32,000 bases of DNA from Candidatus Saccharimonadota bacterium. Its GTDB lineage: Bacteria; Patescibacteriota; Saccharimonadia; Saccharimonadales; UBA4665. Made by a program: the position numbers and the translations under genes. The notes under the pieces are model-generated. The model was not told where the DNA came from. It ran no database searches and saw only the letters and a program-made list of their open reading frames with translations. The stretch's first letter is position 1, and the number at the start of each line of letters is the position of its first letter. The stretch is from contig CP065016.1 of NCBI GenBank assembly GCA_016700375.1, positions 990,001 to 1,022,000 of the forward strand, read 5' to 3'. Positions 1-22,038 of the stretch are shown in pieces.

Positions 1-1
1 A

Positions 2-3000
2 TCCAGTGGCAATACCGCCGACCTTGGAAGCCTGCTCGATAACACCGACGCCCAGGCTATCTCTCGCACAGGCAACACTATTTCGATTACCGGTAGTGCA
101 AGCACGATTGACCTCAGCCCGTACCTGGACAATACCGACGCCCAAGCAATCTCAAGGACCGGTAATACCCTTAGCATTACAGGCAACGCCAGTACTGTCG
201 ACTTAGCCAGTTACCTGGATAACACAGACGCCCAGACACTTAGCCTCGCTGGCACAACGCTCACGGTATCTGGCGGTAACAGCATTGACCTTGCCCCCAT
301 AAACACCGACGCCCAGACACTTAGCCTCGCTGGCACAAACCTCTCGGTAAGCGGCGGTAACACAATCAATATTGCGAGCATAAATACCGATGTCCTGGCC
401 GGTCTCAGCTGCGCAACCAACCAAATTGCCAAGTGGAACGGTAGTGCCTGGGCGTGTGCCGCGGATGTGGACACCGTGCTCAATGAGGCTCAAGTGGATG
501 CCTACGCAAACAACAACGGCTACCTGACGAGCGAAGTCGACGGCAGTATTACAAACGAAATTCAATCTCTCTCGCTGGTTGCGGATGTCTTGAGTGTGTC
601 TGGCGGAAATTCCGTGAACCTCGCTTCCTACCTCGACAACACCGACGCACAGACTTTAAGCTGGAACAGTGGTGCTGCCATTTTAACTATTGCCGGAGGT
701 AATACGGCAAACCTAAGCAGCCTACTCGACAACACCGACGCACAAGCTATATCCAAAACAGGCAACACCTTGAGCATTACGGGTAATGCCAGTACCGTTG
801 ACCTGAGCGGCTACCTAGACAACACCGACACACTGGCAAGCCTGAGCTGTAGTAATGGCCAGGTCGCGCAGTGGAACGGCAGTGCCTGGGTGTGTGCGAA
901 TGCCGCGGTCGATACTGACCAGCAAACTCTGTCGCTTGCCAGCAATAATCTAAGTATATCTGGCGGCAATTCGGTTTCGCTCGCCAGCTACCTCGACAAC
1001 ACTGATGCCCAGGCCATCTCGAAAGCGGGTAACGTTCTTTCCATATCTGGTAATGCCAGCACCGTTGATCTTTCGGGCTACCTAGACAACACCGACAGTC
1101 AGGCCCTTTCACTTGGTGGCAACACGCTCTCTCTGGTAAATGGCGGTTCGGTTAACTTGGCAGCTTATCTCGACAACACCGATGTGCTTGCTGGCCTCAG
1201 CTGTTCCAATAACCAAATACCAAAATGGAACGGCAGCGCTTGGACATGTGCCGCCGACGTAGACACGGTGCTCAACGAAGCTCAAGTGGACGCGTACGCT
1301 AACAACAACGGCTACCTCACCAGCGAAGTCGACGGCAGCACGAGTAACGAGCTACAAACGCTTACCTGGAACAGCGGGACGCACATTTTGACTATTAGCA
1401 GCGGCAACACGGCTGACCTTGGAAGTCTGCTCGACAACACCGACGCCCAGGCCATCAGCAAGACGGGTAACACTCTGAGTATCACGGGTAACGCGAGCAC
1501 CGTGGACCTCGCGAGCTACCTCGATAACACAGACTCCCAGACACTTGGCCTCGCTGGTACAACACTTACGGTGTCGGGTGGCAACAGCATTGACCTCGCA
1601 CCTATCAACACCGACAGTCAAAACCTGAGCCTTACGGGGACTACCCTGAATATTTCAGGCGGAACGGGCGTAGATATTGCCAGTATAAACACGGATGTCT
1701 TGGCAGGCCTCAGCTGTAGCACAAACCAAATTGCCAAGTGGAACGGCAGCGCCTGGACCTGCGCGGCAGATGTCGATACGAACACTGATGCTCAAACTCT
1801 CTCGCTTGCCAGCAATAATCTCAGCATACTAAACGGCAACAGCGTTTCACTGGCTGGCTACCTCGACAACACCGATAGTCAAACGCTTAGCTACAACACC
1901 GGCACGCATGTACTGAGCATTTCTGGCGGTAACACACAAGACCTCAGCAATCTGCTAGACAACACCGACGCCCAGGCCATTTCGCGCACCGGCAACACGG
2001 TATCAATCACGGGTAACGCCAGTACCGTAGACCTTACACCGTACCTAGACAACACCGATGTTCTGGCGAGCCTGAGCTGCTCCAACACGCAAATTGCTAA
2101 ATGGAACGGCAGTGCTTGGGCCTGCGCGGCCGATGTTGACACCGTACTCACGGAAGGTCAGGTTGACACCTATGTCAGTAACAATGGCTACCTCACCAGC
2201 GAGGTCGATGGTTCAACATCAAACGAGCTGCAAGACCTGAACCTCAGCAGCAATATCCTCACCATAACCAGTCTTGGTAGCCCGACTAACATCGACCTTG
2301 CTGGATACCTTGATAACACCGATGCCCTGGCGGCTCTCAGCTGCGTAGACGGCAAGATTGTGAAGCGTGTTGCCGGGGTATGGGCCTGCGGCGACGACAC
2401 TGACACTGTGCTGAGCGAAGCCCAGGTCGATACCTATGTGAGTAACAATGGCTACCTCACGAGCGAAGTCGATGGCAGCACGACGAACGAGCTGCAAAAC
2501 GTATTTCAGGCTGTCGTCACGCCTGATGCGAACAATCCGGCTGCCGATAGCACTACCGATAGCCTGACGTTAGCAAATGGCAGTGGTGTGAACATTACGA
2601 GCAACGGCACAACCGATACTATCACCATCGCTGCAACACTTGGTACTTCAATCAGCAACGCGGAAATCGATGACGCAACTTTGACTTTTTCAAAACTCGC
2701 TGCCAATTCCTGCAACAACGGAGAAATCGTCAAGTTCAACGGCTCTGCCTGGGTCTGTGGTACCGACAGTGACACCACTCTTTCAGAGGCGGCAGTTGAA
2801 GCCTATATCTTTGATGCCGACAATACTGGTACGCTCAGCAGTGGGACACTTGCTCTTGGCAGCTTGAGCTACACCGGCACGCTCGGCGACGCAAATATAG
2901 CCGATGCGCTCACCATTAGTTCTGCCGGTTCGGTTGACGACGCCGCATTAAGCAGCAATGTCACAAAACTCGGGCAGACAATTGAGTCCGGCGAAATAAC

Positions 3001-4942
3001 GAACGGTACGATTACTGGTACAGACCTTGCCAGTGCCACAATCCAATTCAGCAACATCGCGCAAAACGGTTGCTCAAGTAACCAAATCATGAAGTGGAAC
3101 GGTAGCGCTTGGGCTTGTGCGGCAGACGCAACTGGGGGGTCTATAAATTCGTTTGAAACCTTTGCAGCCTCTTCAGGTACAAGTCCGGTCGCAGACAGTG
3201 CGACCGATACACTCACCCTTAGCGGAGGCAGCGGCGTCACTATTACCGGAGATGGTACCACCGATACCATTACGGTGGCAGCCACGCTCGGTACTAGCAT
3301 AGACTCTGCCGAAATAGTCGACGGCACTATTGTGAGTGCCGACATTGCAGACGGCACAATCGCTAACACTGACCTAGCAAATTCGAGCGTCACAGTTAGC
3401 GCCGGCACAGGGCTAACAGGCGGTGGCGCGGTATCGCTTGGTGGCACTATCACGCTCAACCTTGCGAACGACTTTGGTGCCAGCATAGACAGCAGTGAAA
3501 TCACCAACGGTACAATTGTGTTTGCCGATGTCGCGGCCAATGGCTGTCTGAACGGCGAAATCTTCAAATACAATGGCAGCGCGTGGATGTGTGGCAGCGA
3601 CTTAGGGCTGACCAGCGAAGTCGATGGCAGCACGACTAACGAGCTGCAAAACCTCTTCCTTACTATTGCGACGCCCGATGCTGGCAACCCTGCAGCCGAC
3701 TCTACTACCGATACATTGACATTTGCCAACGGTAGCGGTGTGAGCATTACCAGTAACGGTACAACCGACACTATTACCGTTGCTGCCACGCTCGGCACCG
3801 ACATAACGAGCAGCGAGATTGCAGACGGAACAATTGCTGCAATAGATCTGGGCAGTGATAGTGTTACGGGTATAAAAATTCTGGATGGCGCAGTGGCGCT
3901 GGCTAAGCTTGCGACCGATAGCGTGAATGGCACGAAGATTGTTGATGGCACGGTCGCCAACGCCGACCTTGCATTTTCGAATGTGACCGTCAGCGCTGGC
4001 ACGGGTCTGACTGGTGGTGGGGCAATAAATTTGGGCGGTACAGTGACGCTCAATTCCAGCATTGGCACCAGCGTCGAAACAGGCGAAATAACCGATGGCA
4101 CCATTGCGGCCGCAGACATAAGTCCAGACGTCCTCGACTTTACCGAATTCAAAGACAGTATGGCCCTTGACGCGACAACAACTATTGCGCTTGGTGCCAA
4201 TGCTTTCAACATCAATCTTGATAGCACGGGTGATTTCGTGGTGCAGGATGCAGGTATTGCTGTCCTGACAGTAAACGATAGCGGCACTCTACTCTTCAAA
4301 AACTCCGCCGACAATGCCAATGCGTTTGTTGTTCAAGATGCCGCAAACTTGCCTATGTTCACGGTTGATACTATCTCGAATACAGTTGAGGTTGGGACAC
4401 TCGTCGATGATGCAGCCGATGTACTGCTTGTACTCGACGGAGTAAGCGGCTCGGATCCAACAGGCATAGCTGGCAGTATATATTACAATATAACAAATAA
4501 TAAATTCCGGTGCTATCAGGGGACCGCATGGGTTGATTGTGTGCCTGCCGCCTATAACGAATACGCATTTGCGGCAGGTCTAGAGACGTGGACCAATATG
4601 CCCGCAGCGGAGACACAGTTCTTGAATACACCTATACGATTACAAGTAGATTTAACTCGTGCCAGTGAGTTTCGGTTCGGCATAAGTCGCATGGCGGGGG
4701 CAGTAACGGCAGGAGCCGATTGTCGCGTCCAATATGCTACGACCCAAACAGGCACGTATGCTAACTTAGACGGAGCTACCGGTCCAGAAGTGGATGTAAG
4801 CGGTACGGCTGAATTGAAAAGTTCAGCCTGGACAGCCGTAACGGGCGCTGCCAAGTCAGACGTATATCTTCGCATAATGTGCAAACAGGGTAACGGCGTA
4901 GATGACCCACAGTTTAGAAATGCCTACATTCAGGTCCGATAA
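2..4942 (+). CDS. Giant repetitive cell-surface protein, C-terminal 1,646 aa (5' end lies outside the window)
   Basis: Frame 2 is open from nt 2. Hand translation of nt 2-466 gives SSGNTADLGSLLDNTDAQAISRTGNTISITG... with no stop, so the GTG listed at 467 is internal. The body is built from reiterated modules: YLDNTD(A/S)Q..(I/L)S..GNTLSI(T/S)G strands, 9 copies of a Cys-pair motif (LSCSxxQIxKWNGSAWxCAxD) and 5 copies of (NGY)LTSEVDGSTxNELQ. A unique Cys-containing C-terminal domain spans nt ~4454-4942. No function can be assigned from sequence alone. Confidence 0.85.
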   Translation, partial: SSGNTADLGSLLDNTDAQAISRTGNTISITGSASTIDLSPYLDNTDAQAISRTGNTLSITGNASTVDLASYLDNTDAQTLSLAGTTLTVSGGNSIDLAPINTDAQTLSLAGTNLSVSGGNTINIASINTDVLAGLSCATNQIAKWNGSAWACAADVDTVLNEAQVDAYANNNGYLTSEVDGSITNEIQSLSLVADVLSVSGGNSVNLASYLDNTDAQTLSWNSGAAILTIAGGNTANLSSLLDNTDAQAISKTGNTLSITGNASTVDLSGYLDNTDTLASLSCSNGQVAQWNGSAWVCANAAVDTDQQTLSLASNNLSISGGNSVSLASYLDNTDAQAISKAGNVLSISGNASTVDLSGYLDNTDSQALSLGGNTLSLVNGGSVNLAAYLDNTDVLAGLSCSNNQIPKWNGSAWTCAADVDTVLNEAQVDAYANNNGYLTSEVDGSTSNELQTLTWNSGTHILTISSGNTADLGSLLDNTDAQAISKTGNTLSITGNASTVDLASYLDNTDSQTLGLAGTTLTVSGGNSIDLAPINTDSQNLSLTGTTLNISGGTGVDIASINTDVLAGLSCSTNQIAKWNGSAWTCAADVDTNTDAQTLSLASNNLSILNGNSVSLAGYLDNTDSQTLSYNTGTHVLSISGGNTQDLSNLLDNTDAQAISRTGNTVSITGNASTVDLTPYLDNTDVLASLSCSNTQIAKWNGSAWACAADVDTVLTEGQVDTYVSNNGYLTSEVDGSTSNELQDLNLSSNILTITSLGSPTNIDLAGYLDNTDALAALSCVDGKIVKRVAGVWACGDDTDTVLSEAQVDTYVSNNGYLTSEVDGSTTNELQNVFQAVVTPDANNPAADSTTDSLTLANGSGVNITSNGTTDTITIAATLGTSISNAEIDDATLTFSKLAANSCNNGEIVKFNGSAWVCGTDSDTTLSEAAVEAYIFDADNTGTLSSGTLALGSLSYTGTLGDANIADALTISSAGSVDDAALSSNVTKLGQTIESGEITNGTITGTDLASATIQFSNIAQNGCSSNQIMKWNGSAWACAADATGGSINSFETFAASSGTSPVADSATDTLTLSGGSGVTITGDGTTDTITVAATLGTSIDSAEIVDGTIVSADIADGTIANTDLANSSVTVSAGTGLTGGGAVSLGGTITLNLANDFGASIDSSEITNGTIVFADVAANGCLNGEIFKYNGSAWMCGSDLGLTSEVDGSTTNELQNLFLTIATPDAGNPAADSTTDTLTFANGSGVSITSNGTTDTITVAATLGTDITSSEIADGTIAAIDLGSDSVTGIKILDGAVALAKLATDSVNGTKIVDGTVANADLAFSNVTVSAGTGLTGGGAINLGGTVTLNSSIGTSVETGEITDGTIAAADISPDVLDFTEFKDSMALDATTTIALGANAFNINLDSTGDFVVQDAGIAVLTVNDSGTLLFKNSADNANAFVVQDAANLPMFTVDTISNTVEVGTLVDDAADVLLVLDGVSGSDPTGIAGSIYYNITNNKFRCYQGTAWVDCVPAAYNEYAFAAGLETWTNMPAAETQFLNTPIRLQVDLTRASEFRFGISRMAGAVTAGADCRVQYATTQTGTYANLDGATGPEVDVSGTAELKSSAWTAVTGAAKSDVYLRIMCKQGNGVDDPQFRNAYIQVR

Positions 4943-8657: not shown

Positions 8658-9977
8658 TTCTAGTTCTCAATGCTATGGCCTCATGACAAAATAATCCCCA
8701 CATCCTAAGCCGACACCCCAATCGTATAGTTCCACTCACCATGAAAGTCTTCTTGCCGCACGTTTAGTGCGGCGAGCTCTTTGTCAGATATCTTGATGCC
8801 TTTTTCATAGATATTCGTATCGGCTACGGCTGTGACTGTCAGCCCTGATGTGGTGGTTGTGCTGGAGATAAGTCGGATTATAGTTTCTAGACTAGTCAAT
8901 GGCTTCGCTCTCCAATTGATGGATATGTATGAGAAGAGCTTATGCTCTATGGCATTCCACTTGCTCGTAGCTGGAGGGTAATGCCTGATGGTAATCGGTA
9001 TACCTATCTCATCGACCAACTCCTGTAATTCCTTCTTCCACAACCTGTTCCGTGAACCATTACTCCCGCCACCGTCACAAGTGATCAGGAGACGCTTTGC
9101 ATTGGGATACAGTTTACGACCATGTTCCTTCCACCACCGTCGGATACTTTCAACAGCAAAGGCTGAGGTATCGGCACTGGTGCCGACATTCACGAACCCG
9201 GTGTTTGTGAGTCGATCATAGATGCCGTACGGCACCGCCTTGCCGTCGGCGAGAGATGGAAAGTCGTAGACATTGACGACTTCTGCGCTACCTTTTGGCT
9301 GCCATTCCCGGCCATTGTTCTTGAAGTTGCCGAGGAGTTCTTTTTTCTTACAATCAACTGAGATAACAGGGTCGCCGGTTGCTAGAAAGTCTTTGATGGT
9401 AGTATTGATCAATTGAAACTGACCGTCCCGGTCAGGGTGTGAAACACCCTCAACGTTCTTCTTATTTGCCTGTAGGGAGAAGCCTTTTGCTTTGAGGATA
9501 CGGCCAATTGTACGGTAGCTGACTGCATGACCGGCTTTGTTGAGAGTGCTCTCAAGCCTACTGAGTGATTTGGTAGTCCACTGTATTGGGCTCATTGGAT
9601 CCCCCTTGGGATCGAGTAGTGCTTCAAGATCAGTTTCCAGGGTTGGGTCAGTATCCGTCAGTGTCTTTCTGCCGCCACCAGGTAGACGGATACGGTCAAG
9701 GAGTGGTGGGGCTTTACTGTCAGCTATCCCTCTGGAGACCGTCTCACGATCTACGCTGGCAACCCTGGCAACCTGTGAGATACCACCGAGCCCTAGCTTA
9801 CGAGCTTCTGTCCCGAGATATATACGCCATTGGCGTTCATTGAGAACAGGGCGTAGTAGTTCATATTGGTTTTCTTGGGTGATCGTATTTGTTTCTGTCA
9901 TACCTAACAGTATGGCAGATTGAGGCTATGTTGTGGTGATTATTTTGTCAGGAGGCCTATAGCATGAAGAACTAGAA
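8658..9977 (-). mobile_element. ISAzo13-family insertion sequence (about 1.3 kb)
   Basis: Imperfect ~47-bp terminal inverted repeats: 8658 ttctagttctcaatgctatggcctcatgacaaaataatc... versus the reverse complement of 9931-9977, ttctagttcttcatgctataggcctcctgacaaaataatc... An intact transposase lies inside. The outer boundaries could extend a few bp (cttacatt / cttcacatt). No clear target duplication was seen. Confidence 0.8.
8705..9901 (-). CDS. ISAzo13-family DDE transposase
   Basis: The 398-aa ORF carries hallmark blocks of the ISAzo13 / Rhodopirellula-type DDE transposase: LPGGGRK, PIQWTTKS, HPDRDGQF, ISVDCKKKELLGNFKNNGREW, AVPYGIYD, LITCDGGGSNGSR, YPPATSKWNAIEHKLFS and GEWNYTI. Confidence 0.9.
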   Translation of the reverse strand: MTETNTITQENQYELLRPVLNERQWRIYLGTEARKLGLGGISQVARVASVDRETVSRGIADSKAPPLLDRIRLPGGGRKTLTDTDPTLETDLEALLDPKGDPMSPIQWTTKSLSRLESTLNKAGHAVSYRTIGRILKAKGFSLQANKKNVEGVSHPDRDGQFQLINTTIKDFLATGDPVISVDCKKKELLGNFKNNGREWQPKGSAEVVNVYDFPSLADGKAVPYGIYDRLTNTGFVNVGTSADTSAFAVESIRRWWKEHGRKLYPNAKRLLITCDGGGSNGSRNRLWKKELQELVDEIGIPITIRHYPPATSKWNAIEHKLFSYISINWRAKPLTSLETIIRLISSTTTTSGLTVTAVADTNIYEKGIKISDKELAALNVRQEDFHGEWNYTIGVSA

Positions 9978-10037
9978 CAGGTAATGTGAAGCTGTGTACA
10001 TCCGAAGGTATATCTGTTAAAATCGTGCTGTGACCTT

Positions 10038-10170
10038 CGGGGAGTGGCTTGAGTCCGGTAGCGTGAGATCCGCCAGTGGCGGACCGCAAGGGAGTCCACT
10101 CTTGAAAGCTGTGCTTTCAAAGATGTGGCGACGGGGTCGCCGAAAGTGACCGCGGTTTGGTTCTACCGCG
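10038..10170 (+). repeat. tRNA-derived three-hairpin module, copy A (pseudo 5' half of tRNA-Pro plus hp1-hp2-hp3)
   Basis: CGGGGAGTGGCttgAGTCCGGTAGCGt matches 23 of 27 nt of the acceptor/D-arm of tRNA-Pro(UGG), which lies 174 nt downstream. It is followed by hp1 GATCCGCC-agt-GGCGGACC (10067-10085), GCAAG, hp2 TTGAAAGC-tgt-GCTTTCAA, hp3 GGTCGC-cgaaa-GTGACC, and a final hairpin CGCGGT-n8-ACCGCG. Confidence 0.75.
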
Positions 10171-10211: not shown

Positions 10212-10288
10212 CGGGGAGTGGCGCAGTCCGGTAGCGCACTCGGTTTGGGACCGAGGGGTCGCAGGTTCAAATCCTGTCTCCCCGACCA
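10212..10288 (+). tRNA. tRNA-Pro (anticodon UGG), CCA encoded
   Basis: Hand-folded cloverleaf: CGGGGAG/CTCCCCG acceptor, GCGC/GCGC D-stem, CTCGG-TTTGGGA-CCGAG anticodon arm, GCAGG-TTCAAAT-CCTGT T-arm, A73, CCA. Confidence 0.9.
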
Positions 10289-10327
10289 TAAGAAAATACC
10301 TCAGCAGAGCTGGGGTGTTTTCTTATG
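10289..10327 (+). terminator. Intrinsic terminator-like hairpin after tRNA-Pro(UGG)
   Basis: ataAGAAAAtaCCTCAGCagaGCTGGGGtgTTTTCTTat has a GC core stem extended by A-tract/U-tract pairing. Confidence 0.7.
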
Positions 10328-10417
10328 TCAGTGAGATGTGGTGCGAGCTTGCGCGCAGGTTCGTGGACGAGGAACGGAGCAAAAAACGAAAGTTTACTTT
10401 TGTTTTTAGCGAGTACC

Positions 10418-10456
10418 GCAGGGAAGAGGGCGAAGCCCGATAATCCTGTCCCCTCG
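10418..10456 (+). repeat. Degenerate copy of the tRNA-Pro(UGG) T-arm/acceptor 3' strand with a hairpin inserted in the T-loop
   Basis: GCAGG-gaagaGGGCgaaGCCCgatAAT-CCTGT-CCCCTCG compares with the tRNA GCAGG-TTCAAAT-CCTGT-CTCCCCG. Confidence 0.65.
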
Positions 10457-10547: not shown

Positions 10548-10624
10548 CGGGGTGTAGCGCAGCTTGGTAGCGCGCGTCGTTCGGGACGACGAGGTCGTGG
10601 GTTCAAATCCCGCCACCCCGACCA
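10548..10624 (+). tRNA. tRNA-Pro (anticodon CGG), CCA encoded
   Basis: CGGGGTG/CACCCCG acceptor, CGTCG-TTCGGGA-CGACG anticodon arm, GTGGG-TTCAAAT-CCCGC T-arm, A73, CCA. Confidence 0.9.
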
Positions 10625-10661
10625 TACAAAAGACTCGGCACGTGCCGAGTCTTTTGTATGG
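10622..10661 (+). terminator. Perfect 40-nt palindromic terminator-like hairpin after tRNA-Pro(CGG)
   Basis: CCATACAAAAGACTCGGCAC|GTGCCGAGTCTTTTGTATGG overlaps the encoded CCA. Confidence 0.75.
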
Positions 10662-10780
10662 CATAGCCGGGTTTGGACCCACGACCAGAGATTCGCGCAG
10701 CAAAGATCGTAGGTCGTGAAGGTCGCGTAGCGGAGAAAGGAAACGGAAGCTTGCTCACGTCCCTTTCGGAGTGGAGGAGC

Positions 10781-10805
10781 GCAGCGATAATCCTGCCACC
10801 CCAAC
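10781..10805 (+). repeat. Degenerate copy of a tRNA-Pro T-arm plus the tRNA-Pro(CGG) acceptor 3' strand
   Basis: GCAGcgatAATCCTGC-CACCCCaac. The acceptor strand CACCCC matches the adjacent CGG tRNA. The AATCCTG T-loop/stem matches the UGG tRNA. Confidence 0.55.
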
Positions 10806-16233: not shown

Positions 16234-16311
16234 GGCGGATGTAGCTCAGTTGGTTAGAGCGCCAGTTTGTGGCACTGGAGGCCGTGGGTTCAAGCCCCAT
16301 CATTCGCCCCA
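16234..16311 (+). tRNA. tRNA-His (anticodon GUG) with genome-encoded G-1 and CCA
   Basis: G-1 precedes the GCGGATG/CATTCGC acceptor. There is a CCAGT-TTGTGGC-ACTGG anticodon arm, a GTGGG-TTCAAGC-CCCAT T-arm and C73 opposite G-1. Confidence 0.9.
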
Positions 16312-16493
16312 AGATAAAGCCCCTGCGAAAGCGGGGGTTTTATCTTGGCGGCGTGGTGGCTTGAACACACGCCCAAGGCCGTGGGTGAGACCCGCCAGTG
16401 GCGGGTCGCAAGACAATCTTCTCTTGAAAGCTACGCTTTCAAAGATGAAGTTGTGGGGTCGCCGAAGGTGACCAAGCCCCATCATTCGCCCCA
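16312..16493 (+). repeat. tRNA-His-linked unit 1 (182 bp): terminator hairpin + three-hairpin module + copy of the tRNA-His 3' end
   Basis: The terminator is AAGATAAAGCCCCTGCgaaaGCGGGGGTTTTATCTT. The module runs 16347-16472, with hp1 GACCCGCC-agt-GGCGGGTC, hp2 TTGAAAGC-tac-GCTTTCAA and hp3 GGTCGCC-gaa-GGTGACC. This is followed by an exact copy of CAAGCCCCATCATTCGCCCCA (16473-16493 matches 16291-16311). Confidence 0.85.
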
Positions 16494-16847
16494 AGATAAA
16501 GCCCCTGCGAAAGCGGGGGTTTTATCTTGGCGGCGTGGCGGCTTGAACACACGCCCAAGGCCGTGGGTGAGACCCGCCAGTGGCGGGTCGCAAGACAATC
16601 TTCTCTTGAAAGCTATGCTTTCACGCATTTCGCACTTTGAGCTCATGTGCATTTTCTCCTTGAAGCACGGAAGGAGCCGTACTAGGGTACGGCGAGTGAG
16701 TACTGGAAAGGAAAAATGTGCAGGAGTCAAAGAAGCAAGCGGTGCAACCAGCTTTGCTGGTTGGCAGGCTGGCTGGTGTGAAATACGTGGCTTTCAAAGA
16801 TGAAGTTGTGGGGTCGCCGAAGGTGACCAAGCCCCATTATTCGCTCC
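16494..16847 (+). repeat. tRNA-His-linked unit 2 (unit 1 sequence interrupted by a 166-bp MITE), ending in a degenerate tRNA-His 3' copy
   Basis: Near-identical to unit 1 apart from the insertion at 16624-16789. It ends in CAAGCCCCATtATTCGCtCC (16828-16847), followed by a third, degenerate terminator hairpin. Confidence 0.85.
16624..16789. mobile_element. MITE-like insertion (166 bp) with imperfect TIRs and a 7-bp target duplication
   Basis: The termini are CGCATTTCGCAC and, at the other end, the reverse complement of CGTATTTCACAC (10 of 12 match). It is flanked by the direct repeat GCTTTCA (16617-16623 and 16790-16796). Unit 1 provides the uninterrupted empty site. Confidence 0.75.
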
Positions 16848-16933
16848 TGTAAAGCCCCTGCGAAAGCGGGGACTTTATCTTGGGAAAAGATGGGCCGCGT
16901 AAGGTATCAACATATACTGCGGAGGTGTAGTTT

Positions 16934-17943: not shown

Positions 17944-18020
17944 TGGCGCCCCGGGCAGGACTCGAACCTGCGACCTTAGGCTTAGAAGTCCTCTGCTCTA
18001 TCCAGCTGAGCTACCAGGGC
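17944..18020 (-). tRNA. tRNA-Arg (anticodon UCU), CCA encoded
   Basis: The reverse complement folds as a GCCCTGG/CCGGGGC acceptor, GCTC/GAGC D-stem, CTTCTAA anticodon loop and GCAGG-TTCGAGT-CCTGC T-arm. The anticodon stem is atypical: only three Watson-Crick pairs, flanked by G:A and A:G. Confidence 0.75.
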
Positions 18021-18115: not shown

Positions 18116-18139
18116 CCCAACTAAGCTACCAGGGAGCGC
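18116..18139 (-). pseudogene. Fragment resembling the 5' acceptor/D-arm of the tRNA-Arg gene
   Basis: The minus strand reads GCGCTCCCTGGTAGCTTAGTTGGG, compared with the tRNA 5' end GCCCTGGTAGCTCAGCTGGATAG. It lies ~95 nt upstream in the same orientation, and no complete cloverleaf follows. Confidence 0.55.
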
Positions 18140-18871: not shown

Positions 18872-18946
18872 GCGGGTGTCGTATAACGGCTATTATAGGG
18901 GCTTTCCAAGCCCGGGACGGGGGTTCGACTCCCCCCACCCGCACCA
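18872..18946 (+). tRNA. tRNA-Gly (anticodon UCC), CCA encoded
   Basis: GCGGGTG/CACCCGC acceptor, TTTCCAA anticodon loop on a GGGC/GCCC stem, GGGGG-TTCGACT-CCCCC T-arm. The D-stem is short (3 bp). The discriminator is A rather than the U recalled for B. subtilis tRNA-Gly. Confidence 0.8.
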
Positions 18947-19100
18947 TGCAAAAGGCCTTTCCGAAAGGAAAGGTTTTTTGCATGGTTCTGGGCTGGGTGA
19001 GGCGAACGCGAGCGCCAGTGGCGCTCAGCCGCCCTTGCCCTGCGACCATGGGAGCAGGGTTTCACCGAAGGTGAAAGGTCGACTCCCCCCACCCGCACCA
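18947..19100 (+). repeat. tRNA-Gly-linked unit 1 (154 bp): terminator hairpin + divergent three-hairpin module + exact copy of the tRNA-Gly 3' end
   Basis: The terminator hairpin is CCATGCAAAAGGCCTTTCCgaaaGGAAAGGTTTTTTGCATGG. It is followed by GGGTGAG, hp1 GAGCGCC-agt-GGCGCTC, hp2' CCCTGC-n10-GCAGGG, hp3 TTTCACC-gaa-GGTGAAA, and then GGTCGACTCCCCCCACCCGCACCA (the tRNA reads GGTTCGACTCCCCCCACCCGCACCA). Confidence 0.85.
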
Positions 19101-19248
19101 TGCAAAAGGCCTTTCCGAAAGGAAAGGTTTTTTGCATGGTTCTGGGCTGGGTGAGGCGAACGCGAGCGCCAGTGGCGCTCAGCCGCCCTTGCCCTGCGAC
19201 CATGGGAGCAGGGTTTCACCGAAGGTGAAAGGTCGACTCCCCCCACCA
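19101..19248 (+). repeat. tRNA-Gly-linked unit 2, identical by eye to unit 1 and truncated within the acceptor copy
   Basis: Identical by eye to unit 1 over its whole length. It ends ...GGTCGACTCCCCCCACC followed by unrelated sequence (aaatatatg). Confidence 0.85.
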
Positions 19249-19502
19249 AATATATGAGGGGCTCGCCACATTCTGCGGTCCCGCTTCTGCGTGTGGTTAG
19301 GCATAGCCTAACCGGCAGAGAGCCTTGCGGTTTGCCGCTGGCAAACTTCACCCTCAACGGCTCGTATTCGGAATAAATCCGAATACGGCCTACTCCCCCT
19401 GAAGCTCGGACGAACGCCTCGTAACCGGTCAATAAGGTCCTACCTTTGTTTAAAATGTTGTACCAGTAACATATTTTGTATAAATTATGATATAATATAC
19501 CT

Positions 19503-20169: not shown

Positions 20170-21693
20170 CTACAAATCTTGAAATACTTCTATACGAGCG
20201 CCAAGGCTATTTAGGCGTTCGGCCAAGTCTTCGTAGCCGCGCTGAATGGTGTATATGTTGCGTAGTGTCGAAACGCCATCCGCAGCGAGCATACCTATGA
20301 GCAGGAGGCTGGCTGGACGAAGGGCGGGCGGGCAAAATACGTCTGCGCGGGTGAACTTGGTTGGGCCGGTTATGTAAACGCGATGCGGGTCAGCCAGCTC
20401 CACCGTTGCACCGATTTTTGTGACCTCTGTGTAGTAAATGGCGCGGTTTTCATACATCCAGTCATGAATGAGTGTGCGACCTTTGGTGACGGCGCACATA
20501 GGAACAAAGTAGGGCAAGTTGTCGGTGTTTATGCCGGGGTAGGGGAGTGAATGAATTTTATCTATGAGTGCGCGTAGTTCGCCGTTGTGTTTTTGGATGT
20601 GAAGATTAACCAGCTCGGTTTTGCCATTTGTAGCATGGTATCGCTCGGTTATATCGTATCTCAGGCCCATTTTTTTGAGCTTTAGGAGCTCAAGTGTTAC
20701 GAACGCTATCGGCACGCGTTCAATGGTGATTTCCGAGTTTGTGGTCACGGCTGCAGCTATGAAGAACATGGCTTCTATAGGGTCTTCGGCTGGTGCGTAA
20801 ACTACATTTTTCTTGATGTTTTTGACGCCACGAACGCGCAGAGTACTTGTCCCTACGCCGTCTATTTTGACACCAAGCTTCTGTAGGAAAAAGCACACAT
20901 CTTGCACCATGTAATTTGCGCTGGCAAACTCTATGGTGGTTTCCTCTTCGCGCCCAGCGGCAGCCATGAGGGCGTTTTCAGTAACGGTATCACCCATTTC
21001 GTACAGCGCAAACCTGCCAGCGGGCCTTGGCTTCACGGATACTTGGTAGTGGCCGCTGGTTGCTTTAACGTCGAGGCCAAATTCTTGCAGGGCAAAGAGG
21101 TGTGGCTCCACCGTGCGTTCGCCCAACTTGCAACCCCCCGCATAGGGGATTTTAAACTCTTTATGCTCATGCATGAGCGAGCCCATCATCATTATTACCG
21201 TGCGGGTTTTTCGGGCAGCCTCTTTGTTCATGTTGCCCAGATTTAGTTTGGCGGGCCGGCGTAGCTCCAGGTCGCTCCCGTTTGTCCACTTGGCCTGCAC
21301 TCCAATGCTTTCCAGCACTTCGAGTATCCGGAACACTTCCTCGATACGAGGGAAATTTACAAACTTAGTTGTACCATGGTTTAGCAGCGCAGCGCACAGG
21401 AGGCCAACTGCTGCATTTTTGCTGGTTTTGAGTTGAATGGAGCCATGGAGTTCGTGCCCACCTGCTATGCGTAGATTAACCGAACCACTACCCAAGGAAA
21501 TTATTTGTTTATTGAGTGCTTCGCTCAGTCGTCCGAGTGTTTCTAGGCTGAGGTTTTGCCGCCCCTTCTCTATTCTGTTGATGGCAGATTGGCTCGTACC
21601 AAGCCGCTTAGCGAGTTCAGTCTGAGTCATGCCACGTTCTTGGCGCACACGCGCCACAAAATCACCAATTCGTTCGTTTGTTTGCGTTGTCAT
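20170..21693 (-). CDS. murA: XRE-family HTH domain fused to UDP-N-acetylglucosamine 1-carboxyvinyltransferase (MurA)
   Basis: Residues ~8-68 (IGDFVARVRQERGMTQTELAKRLGTSQSAINRIEKGRQNLSLETLGRLSEAL) form a Cro/C1-type HTH. The remaining ~435 aa is collinear with MurA: SKNAAVGLLCAALL, the active-site loop YAGGCKLGERTVEPH compared with E. coli PGGCTIGARPVDLH, and the C-terminal RGYEDLAERLNSLGARI. Confidence 0.85.
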   Translation of the reverse strand: MTTQTNERIGDFVARVRQERGMTQTELAKRLGTSQSAINRIEKGRQNLSLETLGRLSEALNKQIISLGSGSVNLRIAGGHELHGSIQLKTSKNAAVGLLCAALLNHGTTKFVNFPRIEEVFRILEVLESIGVQAKWTNGSDLELRRPAKLNLGNMNKEAARKTRTVIMMMGSLMHEHKEFKIPYAGGCKLGERTVEPHLFALQEFGLDVKATSGHYQVSVKPRPAGRFALYEMGDTVTENALMAAAGREEETTIEFASANYMVQDVCFFLQKLGVKIDGVGTSTLRVRGVKNIKKNVVYAPAEDPIEAMFFIAAAVTTNSEITIERVPIAFVTLELLKLKKMGLRYDITERYHATNGKTELVNLHIQKHNGELRALIDKIHSLPYPGINTDNLPYFVPMCAVTKGRTLIHDWMYENRAIYYTEVTKIGATVELADPHRVYITGPTKFTRADVFCPPALRPASLLLIGMLAADGVSTLRNIYTIQRGYEDLAERLNSLGARIEVFQDL

Positions 21694-21766
21694 GGAGGCT
21701 TATTATATCACTAGTGGTATATTACACTCAATTCCGACAAGCAATCAAGCAATGGGCAAAGCGAAA

Positions 21767-21859
21767 GACTTGCCAGGGGCGAGTCGCAAGGCAACCTTCC
21801 GGGCAAGCTATGCTTGCCGCAGTGAAGTTGCGGGGTCGCAGGATGCGACAAGGTCCTCC
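21767..21859 (+). repeat. Orphan copy of the three-hairpin module (no adjacent tRNA)
   Basis: hp1 GACTTGCC-agg-GGCGAGTC, then GCAAG, hp2 GGCAAGC-tat-GCTTGCC, GTGAAGTTGCGGG, hp3 GTCGCA-gga-TGCGAC, and CAAGGTCCTCC. The terminal GACAAGGTCCTCC is repeated at 21948-21960. Confidence 0.75.
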
Positions 21860-22038
21860 ATTTTGTGTCAGCGAAGCGACGGAGCCGACAGGCGAGCTTT
21901 AGGGCAGGAGGAGAGCTTATGCGGATTCATTCCGAATAAGCGAGGAGGACAAGGTCCTCCTAAACAGTTCCGCAGACAAAATTACTATATGCTGCTCATT
22001 CGCTACGGGTTACACTATAGGTAGCAATAAGGGGTTAC

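Follow-up and report, generated by a model that had tools for sequence, protein, structure and literature searches.

Genomic context of the module copies

The DNA analysed here (the window) is a stretch of 32,000 nucleotides of contig CP065016.1 from a Candidatus Saccharimonadota bacterium. Its open reading frames correspond to housekeeping genes and one insertion sequence (IS) of the ISAzo13 family, and five ordinary tRNA genes were annotated with ARAGORN and Rfam, namely tRNA-Pro(UGG) at 10212–10288, tRNA-Pro(CGG) at 10548–10624, tRNA-His at 16235–16311, tRNA-Arg at 17944–18020 on the minus strand, and tRNA-Gly at 18872–18946. In addition, the window carries a module of approximately 88 nt in five copies, together with two divergent ones after tRNA-Gly, all within 12 kb. 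The copies were scored with R1, a covariance model obtained from 44 homologues of other genomes. Those listed in the earlier note, which had been made from the letters of the DNA, were recovered by a repeat finder at, or a few bases from, the positions given there, and one further copy on the minus strand had been overlooked. The four locus types distinguished in that note reduce to orphan copies and two layouts that recur, one on the upstream and one on the downstream side of an intact tRNA gene. Features described below are on the forward strand unless stated otherwise.

Copy A exhibits the upstream layout (type U). A promoter-like site recognised from its sequence, TGTACA-17-TAAAAT (9995–10023), is situated ahead of a pseudo-tRNA-Pro fragment (10037–10062), which corresponds to positions 1–25 of a decayed tRNA-Pro(UGG), i.e., the 5' strand of the acceptor and the D arm, and forms the left flank of the module. 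The resemblance of the start of copy A to tRNA-Pro had already been noticed and is confirmed (24/27 identity to the intact gene), but the match is flank and lies outside the module. The module itself (10063–10151; R1 score of 91 bits) is composed of the hairpins P1 (10067–10085), P2 (about 10091–10133), and P3 (10137–10150). It shows two pairing defects, an A.C in P1 and a C.A in P3, and the orthologous copy at locus L005 has neither of them. The right flank (10152–10170) is the decayed anticodon arm of tRNA-Pro, followed by a promoter and the intact tRNA-Pro(UGG) gene.

The downstream layout (type D) is found behind tRNA-His. The gene is followed by a terminator-like hairpin (16312–16345), around which a long imperfect palindrome is centred, and by an antisense copy of the 3' third of tRNA-His (16346–16374; TGG, acceptor 3' strand, and T arm) with 76% identity (E 3e-9; p = 0.005). 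A sense copy of the variable loop and the 5' strand of the T stem (AGGCCGTGGGT, 16376–16386) touches the module of the first His unit (16385–16473; 104 bits), which interrupts the partial tRNA copy between T54 and C56. Downstream, a direct repeat of the tRNA-His 3' end (CAAGCCCCATCATTCGCCCCA) with its terminator (16473–16527) is 100% identical. The second His unit (16528–16883) consists of an antisense arm, a module (16567–16828), a decayed tRNA 3' end, and a terminator. The P2 of this module is split by an unrelated MITE (16622–16789) with 14-nt terminal inverted repeats (TIR) and a 5-bp target-site duplication (TSD), GCTTT, and the two halves scored 39 bits (16567 to about 16621) and 34 bits (about 16790 to 16828).

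Behind tRNA-Gly, the repeat finder identified two identical units of 154 nt (18947–19247). Each combines a terminator and an antisense arm from the 3' part of tRNA-Gly with a divergent module of three hairpins and a tRNA-Gly 3' end. These modules (19008–19076 and 19162–19230) scored weakly, with 27 bits each, and the GTGAG that had been listed ahead of their first hairpin belongs to the antisense tRNA-Gly 3' end instead. The overlooked minus-strand copy (19264–19351; 61.5 bits, E = 7e-13) has an orthologue at locus L006 and a 3' flank, AGCCCCTCAT, that resembles a T loop plus T stem, with no intact tRNA nearby. Finally, the orphan module (21763–21850; 75 bits) bears the loops AGG and GGA and is followed by AAGGTCCTCC, which occurs a second time inside a hairpin at 21940–21958.

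Fold and covariation of the module

From 5' to 3', the fold of the module comprises a GUGA joint, P1, a GCAAG-type joint, P2, a GGG joint, and P3. P1 is an 8-bp hairpin with an A-R-N triloop, the P2 hairpin is long and bulged and its tip is free, and the P3 hairpin has 6 bp, a GAA triloop, and a G.U pair that is conserved, being retained in 79/94 copies. The sequences that had been described as a separate second hairpin and as a constant GAAGUUG linker are present, but the former is the tip of the long P2 and the latter is the 3' strand of P2, which pairs with CAAUCUUC.

The proposal of a recurrent, ordered three-hairpin module under selection for structure was borne out by the alignments. In the 44 genome copies, 96.1% of the cells were paired and double changes were present at 20 of the 31 pairs, compared with 78.7% of cells paired in shuffled controls (none of 500 as high) and 27–49% in slid controls. 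Among the 111 metagenome copies, in an alignment fitted to the model, 95.5% of the cells were paired, 753 cells were compensated, and all 31 pairs showed double changes. Because GTGAG and the P1 loop were invariant in the seed patterns used for detection, as was the P3 loop in one scan, the conservation of these three elements is partly a detection effect. The module stems contained 59 G.T pairs versus 7 A.C pairs, which confines the folding to the tRNA-sense strand. The module family is defined by the fold of one strand and not by its sequence, and the covariation would reflect a constraint on the lineage that keeps being copied rather than on individual copies. Triloops closed by C-G throughout were considered as proof of a DNA-level structure, and this was rejected because the wider set closes the P3 loop with G-C as often as with C-G. 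The P3 G.U pair, the purine-rich joints, and the promoters ahead of the upstream copies would be equally apt for a functional RNA.

Distribution across genomes and metagenomes

A pattern derived from the window, GTGAG..GCCAGTGGC..CCGAARGTGA, was run on representatives of 185,579 species and yielded 53 matches, 46 of which bear the module, the remaining seven being chance matches inside genes of other phyla. The module-bearing records comprise 43 labelled as Saccharibacteria or Saccharimonadales and three unlabelled ones ("uncultured bacterium"). R1 identified 59 modules on the genome loci and 111 on 80 metagenome loci that had been collected with a different seed. Several metagenome-assembled genomes (MAGs) carried two to four modules over one or two fetched contigs each, and in many contigs the module was the contig breakpoint. 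Loci L005, L006, and L024 are 95–97% identical to the window, which places the latter in a Saccharimonadales genome. The possibility that the copies are assembly artefacts, which had been raised before, is excluded by about 46 independent MAGs, one closed chromosome among them, and over 80 metagenome contigs.

The impression that no described family shares this architecture was upheld as well. Rfam 15, searched at gathering thresholds and at E ≤ 10 with tRNA-like RNAs, tmRNA, and small self-cleaving ribozymes included, returned only the five genuine tRNAs in the window and left the modules unmatched. Viral contigs searched with three patterns and R1 contained no true module, plasmid and phage records did not match it, and a description of the element was not found by full-text searching of the published literature. 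The module family is specific to Saccharibacteria, small (about 88 nt), and non-coding.

tRNA-like flanks and layouts

In the genome loci, nearly every module with sufficient flank was located approximately 20–250 nt from an intact same-strand tRNA gene whose identity matched that flank. For the metagenome copies, an intact same-strand tRNA was present within 450 nt in 75 of 111 cases, 19 copies were near the end of the fetched stretch, and 17 had none nearby. The intact copy of the tRNA represented in the flank was nearly always no more than about 300 nt away. At least 18 tRNA identities were found in the flanks, among them Pro, His, Gly, Glu, Gln, Lys, Val, Thr, Leu, Arg, Ser, Tyr, Met, Ile, Trp, and Phe.

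The type U layout, seen in copy A, is composed of a promoter, the tRNA from position 1 to a variable point, the module, a few tRNA bases, a short promoter-bearing spacer, and the intact tRNA, with the module at tRNA position 17, 23–26, 29, 37, 46, or 50–55. The type D layout, seen in the His and Gly arrays, starts with the intact tRNA and its terminator hairpin, followed by about 30 nt, about 10 nt of the variable loop and T-stem 5' strand, the module, and a tRNA 3' end that runs from the T loop to CCA, often with a second terminator behind it; tandem units are possible. Most of the interrupted tRNA copies were truncated. Depending on the lineage, a given tRNA was invaded at different positions (15, 23, 29, and 50 for tRNA-Gln), and this variation of the entry points indicates independent insertions. 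Two modules were found in one pseudo-tRNA at L009 and L129; a spurious 95-nt "tRNA-Thr" is annotated in L129.

The tRNA-like sequence is flank from the adjacent tRNA gene and not part of the module. A derivation of the module from tRNA-Pro, with the anticodon arm replaced by the first hairpin, does not stand, as the tRNA part changes with the neighbour and the position of the module varies. Likewise, the analogy with SINEs had to be abandoned, the tRNA head not being part of the element and the flank following the adjacent gene. The segment GGGGTCGCAGG occurs in both the orphan copy and tRNA-Pro, as reported. In copies next to tRNA genes of all types, however, GGGGTCGC corresponds to the consensus of the module (joint plus P3), and its likeness to tRNA-Pro is therefore not evidence of descent.

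Insertion junctions and targets

The left flank of the module ends in GG, its final two positions being 75% and 85% G. When the initial G or GT of the module is allowed to overlap the target, the target lacked 1 nt in 16 cases and 2 nt in 21 others. The commonest target was the T loop, where insertions are situated between T54 and C56, and the D, anticodon, and variable loops were also invaded; the orientation of the module was constant and equal to that of the host tRNA gene. Neither terminal inverted repeats nor a target-site duplication were found at the module ends; GTGAG... and ...GGTGAC are not inverted repeats. The module thus lacks the TIR and fixed-length TSD of classical MITEs, and target bases are lost, not duplicated.

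Insertions were not restricted to tRNA sequences. At L119 the module is simply inserted in a non-tRNA hairpin, without duplication, and at L091, L102, and L103 it is located inside the loop of a conserved non-tRNA hairpin, these target loci being unmatched in Rfam. At L142 and L165 one module is nested in another, at the joint between GGG and P3. Locus L024 bears a full-length tRNA-His with a T-loop module, and its contig ends before any intact copy appears.

Antisense arms and partial duplications

In type D units, the antisense copy of the tRNA 3' third is located directly after the terminator, starts with TGG (the complement of CCA), and reaches the variable region. Together with the terminator and the tRNA 3' part, this arm makes up a single extended, imperfect palindrome whose centre is the terminator loop, at 16312–16374 for His (identity and E value as above) and at 18947–19007 for Gly (E 3e-10). 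A second turn, in the variable region, leads to the sense segment bearing the module. The upstream T-loop copies are the mirror image, with about 10 nt of inner flank followed by the reverse complement of that flank; at L015, for instance, ATTTGAACCC comes directly after TCAAATCCC and represents an uninterrupted T arm in reverse complement. In most units the antisense arm pairs with the 3' repeat (median of 7 bp versus 3 bp in shuffles), and RNAfold gave z = -4.9 for the His unit. The same arrangement is seen in an unrelated insert class that follows both tRNA-Pro genes in the window. The regularity of these partial target duplications, direct and inverted, goes beyond mere survivorship, and we know of no transposition chemistry that accounts for them.

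Three explanations of the antisense arm were considered and rejected. The antisense TTCGAACC cannot serve as a -35 box with only 11–12 nt to the -10 box. A retroviral-type primer-binding site is at odds with an arm that is only about 77% complementary and has indels, and a cDNA of mature tRNA with an inverted copy that runs beyond CCA into the trailer and terminator.

Turnover and age of the copies

The syntenic complete genome CP064993 contains the same Gly, Arg, His, Pro, and Pro tRNA genes, tightly packed and with zero modules. Strains sharing 95–97% identity with the window differ from it in the elements present at a given tRNA. After tRNA-Pro(UGG), for example, L005 bears an R1 unit and the window a different insert, while in L024 one module is located upstream of tRNA-Pro(CGG) and another inside the first tRNA-His copy. 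At L035, the outer pseudo-halves represent one tRNA-Pro(GGG) allele (CGGGGTG/CACCCCG) and the inner intact gene another (CGGGGAT/ATCCCCG), and the presence of two alleles implies horizontal input. At L053, the terminator beside the live gene is unlike the terminator after the pseudo 3' end, indicating that the inner segment was imported and not copied on the spot. Judging from these sequence comparisons, the units appear to move between lineages. An exact pair of empty and filled sites for a single module was not recovered, and no excised, circular, or "in transit" form of the module was seen.

The pseudo-tRNA flanks showed 3.4% divergence from the live gene, and 4.9% of the pairs in the modules were broken, compared with about 6.6% expected under neutrality. 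Judged by both values, the copies look young and unselected in place, in the manner of dead copies left by an active element. Selection on each copy in place was rejected, as the frequency of broken pairs is close to that predicted from neutral decay.

Search for a mobilising gene

The clustering of 377 ORFs from about 47 loci revealed syntenic housekeeping families only, and among about 50 loci no protein family recurred beside modules over different tRNA contexts. No transposase, recombinase, or reverse transcriptase was tied to the module in the window and the fetched loci; the sole transposase near modules belongs to the ISAzo13-family IS, which is unrelated and has its own inverted repeats. 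An integrase was neither encoded in the window, nor recurrent in the loci, nor adjoining any of about 170 copies.

Discussion

The pattern of occurrence suggests that the module is probably, though far from certainly, a copy of a Saccharibacteria-specific, fold-defined, non-autonomous small mobile insertion element, whose mobility we infer from comparison of the loci. The earlier note had left the choice between a mobile element and a structured ncRNA; a non-autonomous mobile element fits better than a dedicated ncRNA. The selfish-element reading is favoured because it covers the many targets, the G-run junctions, the nesting, the harmless simple insertions, the rapid turnover, and the lack of a linked gene. 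Such an element would insert 3' of a G-run (directly after ..GG), oriented like the host gene, and would enter a loop or joint that is left unpaired in a hairpin-forming sequence. Its hits would fall mainly on tRNA loops, plus other hairpins and the joints between GGG and P3, with the loss of 1–2 target bases. If each tRNA gene is single-copy and essential in genomes of approximately 1 Mb, an insertion would survive only in a redundant partial copy. Mobilisation may occur in trans via a single-stranded intermediate, either ssDNA or RNA, and the duplications could originate from fold-back or template-switch copying, or from small-circle integration. A more far-reaching version, which we put forward tentatively, is that of a new class of hairpin-loop-targeting elements, present in CPR bacteria and travelling as a folded single strand, with the intact tRNA regenerated at each insertion by fold-back or template-switch copying, which would make the element harmless, and with either an enzyme outside the known transposon families or an RNA-level reverse-insertion by the module itself. 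It would parallel, in bacteria, the transposition of archaeal tRNA introns, but splicing would play no part. There is likewise a modest but genuine chance that the mechanism is categorically new.

The units could alternatively be miniature integrative elements, i.e., att-only, CIME-like relics or satellites of tRNA-targeting elements with an integrase acting in trans, a reading that we consider rather unlikely. A small circle with a partial tRNA and its own terminator or promoter would recombine with the resident gene, rebuild it, and displace a fragment, and the module with the antisense and sense tRNA arms would constitute a folded single-strand attachment site, like CTX-phi attP or integron attC. 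This would agree with the tRNA 3'-end direct repeats that bound type D units, starting from the T loop and extending over 21–22 nt (up to 58 nt with the terminator), with the intact gene always at one end of a tandem array, and with the more decayed state of the distal unit of the His array. The element-specific terminators in L053, and in L005 versus the window, the foreign allele in the inner tRNA of L035, the pairing of the antisense arm with the 3' repeat together with the stable fold of the His unit, and the second, unrelated insert class that shares the layout after both tRNA-Pro genes point in the same direction. However, none of the approximately 170 copies has an integrase beside it, and the viral contigs as well as the phage and plasmid records searched are devoid of the module. 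Nor does recombination of this type explain the insertions in D, anticodon, and variable loops, the simple non-tRNA insertion, the nesting, or the uniform junction after GG, and motifs resembling integron R/L boxes are absent from the sequence. Still less probable is a functional structured ncRNA, such as a protein-binding RNA or a ribozyme, which would use tRNA scaffolds and promoters to be expressed and processed, the tRNA fragments acting as its expression cassette. The strong covariation confined to the transcribed-sense strand would suit it, as would the P3 G.U pair, the conserved purine-rich joints, the constant orientation with the tRNA, and the promoter retained by upstream copies, from which transcription as a tRNA leader is expected. 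Against it, copy number, position, and presence differ among near-identical strains and a syntenic relative has none, downstream copies stand behind terminator hairpins, and copies are nested in each other and also in unrelated hairpins; selection in place does not exceed the neutral expectation, and Rfam, known small ribozymes included, gave no match.

Two further readings have very little probability. If the modules were tRNA introns or remnants thereof, a bacterial counterpart of the archaeal non-canonical introns, which seems highly improbable, their positions would agree with the archaeal intron sites 25/26, 37/38, 45/46, and 53–56, the presence of up to two modules per tRNA copy would be accounted for, and so would the full-length tRNA-His of L024. 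Nevertheless, 1–2 nt are missing (e.g., U55), so that removal of the module cannot restore the tRNA, an intact copy adjoins the interrupted one wherever flank is available, and most interrupted copies are truncated. Three simple hairpins in 88 nt also fall well short of the size of a group I or II core, and no such core was detected by Rfam. Imprecise excision and the intact neighbour largely refute an intron. The tRNA-Pro-derived, SINE-like element of the earlier note, with the tRNA head included, is even harder to credit. It had in its favour the start of copy A and the occurrence of GGGGTCGCAGG in both the orphan copy and tRNA-Pro, but the flank always matches the adjacent tRNA and GGGGTCGC is module consensus everywhere; the agreement of flanks with the adjacent tRNA across at least 18 identities refutes this origin.

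Saccharibacteria have genomes of approximately 1 Mb with few recognised mobile elements, and cultivated members are reportedly naturally transformable. A mobile element of the kind favoured here would be a rare case of a dedicated selfish element in minimal genomes, one that has remodelled many tRNA loci. The module probably accounts for assembly fragmentation at tRNA loci and could mislead tRNA annotation. If insertion itself makes the regular duplications, this would imply an unusual insertion chemistry or a replication-coupled mechanism, and if the RNA reading were true, a large and strongly covarying RNA class would be absent from every database. The target rule, a G-run in an unpaired loop with an intact target copy alongside, may be testable, for which natural transformability would help.

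Comparison with known systems

When compared to other small repeated elements, the module resembles REP/REPIN sequences with their RAYT and the PATEs of IS200/IS605 in being short, non-coding, multi-copy, and non-autonomous, with hairpins on one strand and no TSD. The strand-specific hairpin ends, absence of TSD, and multiple copies by which REPINs and PATEs are recognised are all found in it. Those elements are mobilised in trans, and their stem covariation is kept by the needs of transposition. In contrast to them, the module has three hairpins with fixed joints instead of one or two hairpins, enters tRNA or hairpin loops after a G-run with the loss of 1–2 nt, and comes with partial copies of the target, both direct and inverted. 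Its target is a G-run (GG) and not a fixed tetranucleotide, and no linked Y1/HUH transposase was present in about 50 loci.

In Dehalococcoides, tandem direct-repeat arrays at ssrA and tRNA genes have been reported (PMC3146451). The module units share with tRNA-targeting integrative elements and CIMEs the tRNA 3' direct repeats that start in the T loop, the intact gene at one end, the tandem arrays, and the strain-specific occupancy. Direct repeats of tRNA segments surround the insert and the tRNA is regenerated, as in CIMEs, but traces of an integrase or of island genes between the repeats are absent from these units of 150–180 bp. Unlike CIMEs, they also occur in 5'-side versions, can interrupt the D, anticodon, or variable loop, and carry an antisense tRNA arm, and a structured module is conserved where integrative elements have protein-binding arm sites. 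Integron attC and CTX-phi attP(+) are similar in that structure and not sequence is conserved, one strand folds, and imperfect, bulged inverted arms pair, which in the module units would likewise mimic the target duplex; there, too, the target is regenerated and arrays are possible. Unlike these sites, the module has no R/L boxes or dif-like core, and it is a three-way branched insert with tRNA targets.

The non-canonical tRNA introns of archaea (Thermoproteales), located at positions 25/26, 37/38, 45/46, and 53–59, have been proposed to transpose among tRNA genes, and they resemble the module as related short inserts in many tRNA genes, sometimes several per gene. They differ in that the present host is bacterial, excision would not restore the tRNA, and what is interrupted is a redundant, truncated pseudogene. 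Among the small palindromic elements that enter genes for structural RNAs and proteins, Rickettsia palindromic elements, mitochondrial double-hairpin elements, and GC clusters are tiny selfish hairpin inserts in RNA genes of reduced genomes, and the Rickettsia and mitochondrial inserts are tolerated within functional genes. Here, by contrast, the invaded copy is non-functional with an intact copy alongside, and fold and sequences are unrelated. While it presents the complete defining features of none of these systems, the module is most similar to REPINs and PATEs in its working and shares its layout with tRNA-integrating elements and att sites.

Mobile elements and partial tRNA copies in the window

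The second module-bearing unit after tRNA-His (His unit 2) carries a classical MITE of 168 nt (16622-16789) within its P2 helix. The terminal inverted repeats of the MITE are 14 nt long (CACGCATTTCGCAC and CACGTATTTCACAC), its target-site duplication is 5 bp (GCTTT), and the MITE accounts for the '~170-nt extension' described for the second copy after tRNA-His. An ISAzo13-family insertion sequence was identified at 8658-9977, encoding a DDE transposase on the minus strand (8705-9901; PF07592, E 3.5e-131) and ending in imperfect terminal inverted repeats of ~50 nt (8658-8707 and 9927-9977). The promoter of copy A, the module upstream of tRNA-Pro(UGG), is situated directly downstream of this insertion sequence, which is unrelated to the three-hairpin module and was not seen at the matching position in L005, a related strain.

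Each of the two tRNA-Pro genes is followed by an insert of a second class, unrelated to the module (10289-10456 and 10625-10805). Both inserts contain a terminator and a decayed 3′ end of tRNA-Pro, together with ~70-115 nt of other sequence, and the insert after tRNA-Pro(CGG) also contains an antisense T-arm segment. Since this unrelated class shares the layout of the module-bearing units, the layout is not specific to the module. The tRNA-Arg gene also has a partial copy: a 5′ fragment of it (18117-18134, minus strand, 16/18 identity), with no module, lies ~100 nt upstream of the intact gene. In the syntenic genome L055, tRNA-Arg has the opposite orientation.

The two orphan modules (19264-19351, minus strand, and 21763-21850) each adjoin a palindromic hairpin (~19355-19390 and ~21917-21943), and the two hairpins resemble each other (TATTCGGA.TTATTCCGAATA). 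Among the other protein-coding genes of the window, one at 20170-21693 (minus strand) encodes a 507-aa fusion of an N-terminal Xre-type helix-turn-helix to EPSP synthase, which is also kept in L055, and a 1491-aa ORF (467-4942) showed no significant domain in Pfam.

Variants and targets outside the window

A longer form of the module, 'type B', was found at L009 324-405, L102 723-804, L135 11258-11359, and as the inner copy of L142. It has P1 and the CGCAAGG joint in common with the module but differs from it in its GC-rich middle (CCGGAGCC..CGACGG..) and its 3′ hairpin. The module also has a repeated non-tRNA target (L091, L102/L124, L103): a conserved hairpin (..CAGAGGGGGTGGGCACCGCTG..), downstream of which a second segment (..CCACCCTTCAACCCACC..) is conserved as well. 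The hairpin matched no Rfam family and bears partial-duplication arrays like those at tRNA targets.

At 1-180 (minus strand) of L024, a strain with 97% identity to the window, the tRNA-His copy that comes first behind the conserved promoter is full-length but has the module in its T loop; the contig ends 36 nt farther on. In L129, ARAGORN called a spurious 95-nt 'tRNA-Thr(AGT)' (169-263) spanning a pseudo-tRNA-Pro and a module; modules can thus corrupt automatic tRNA annotation.
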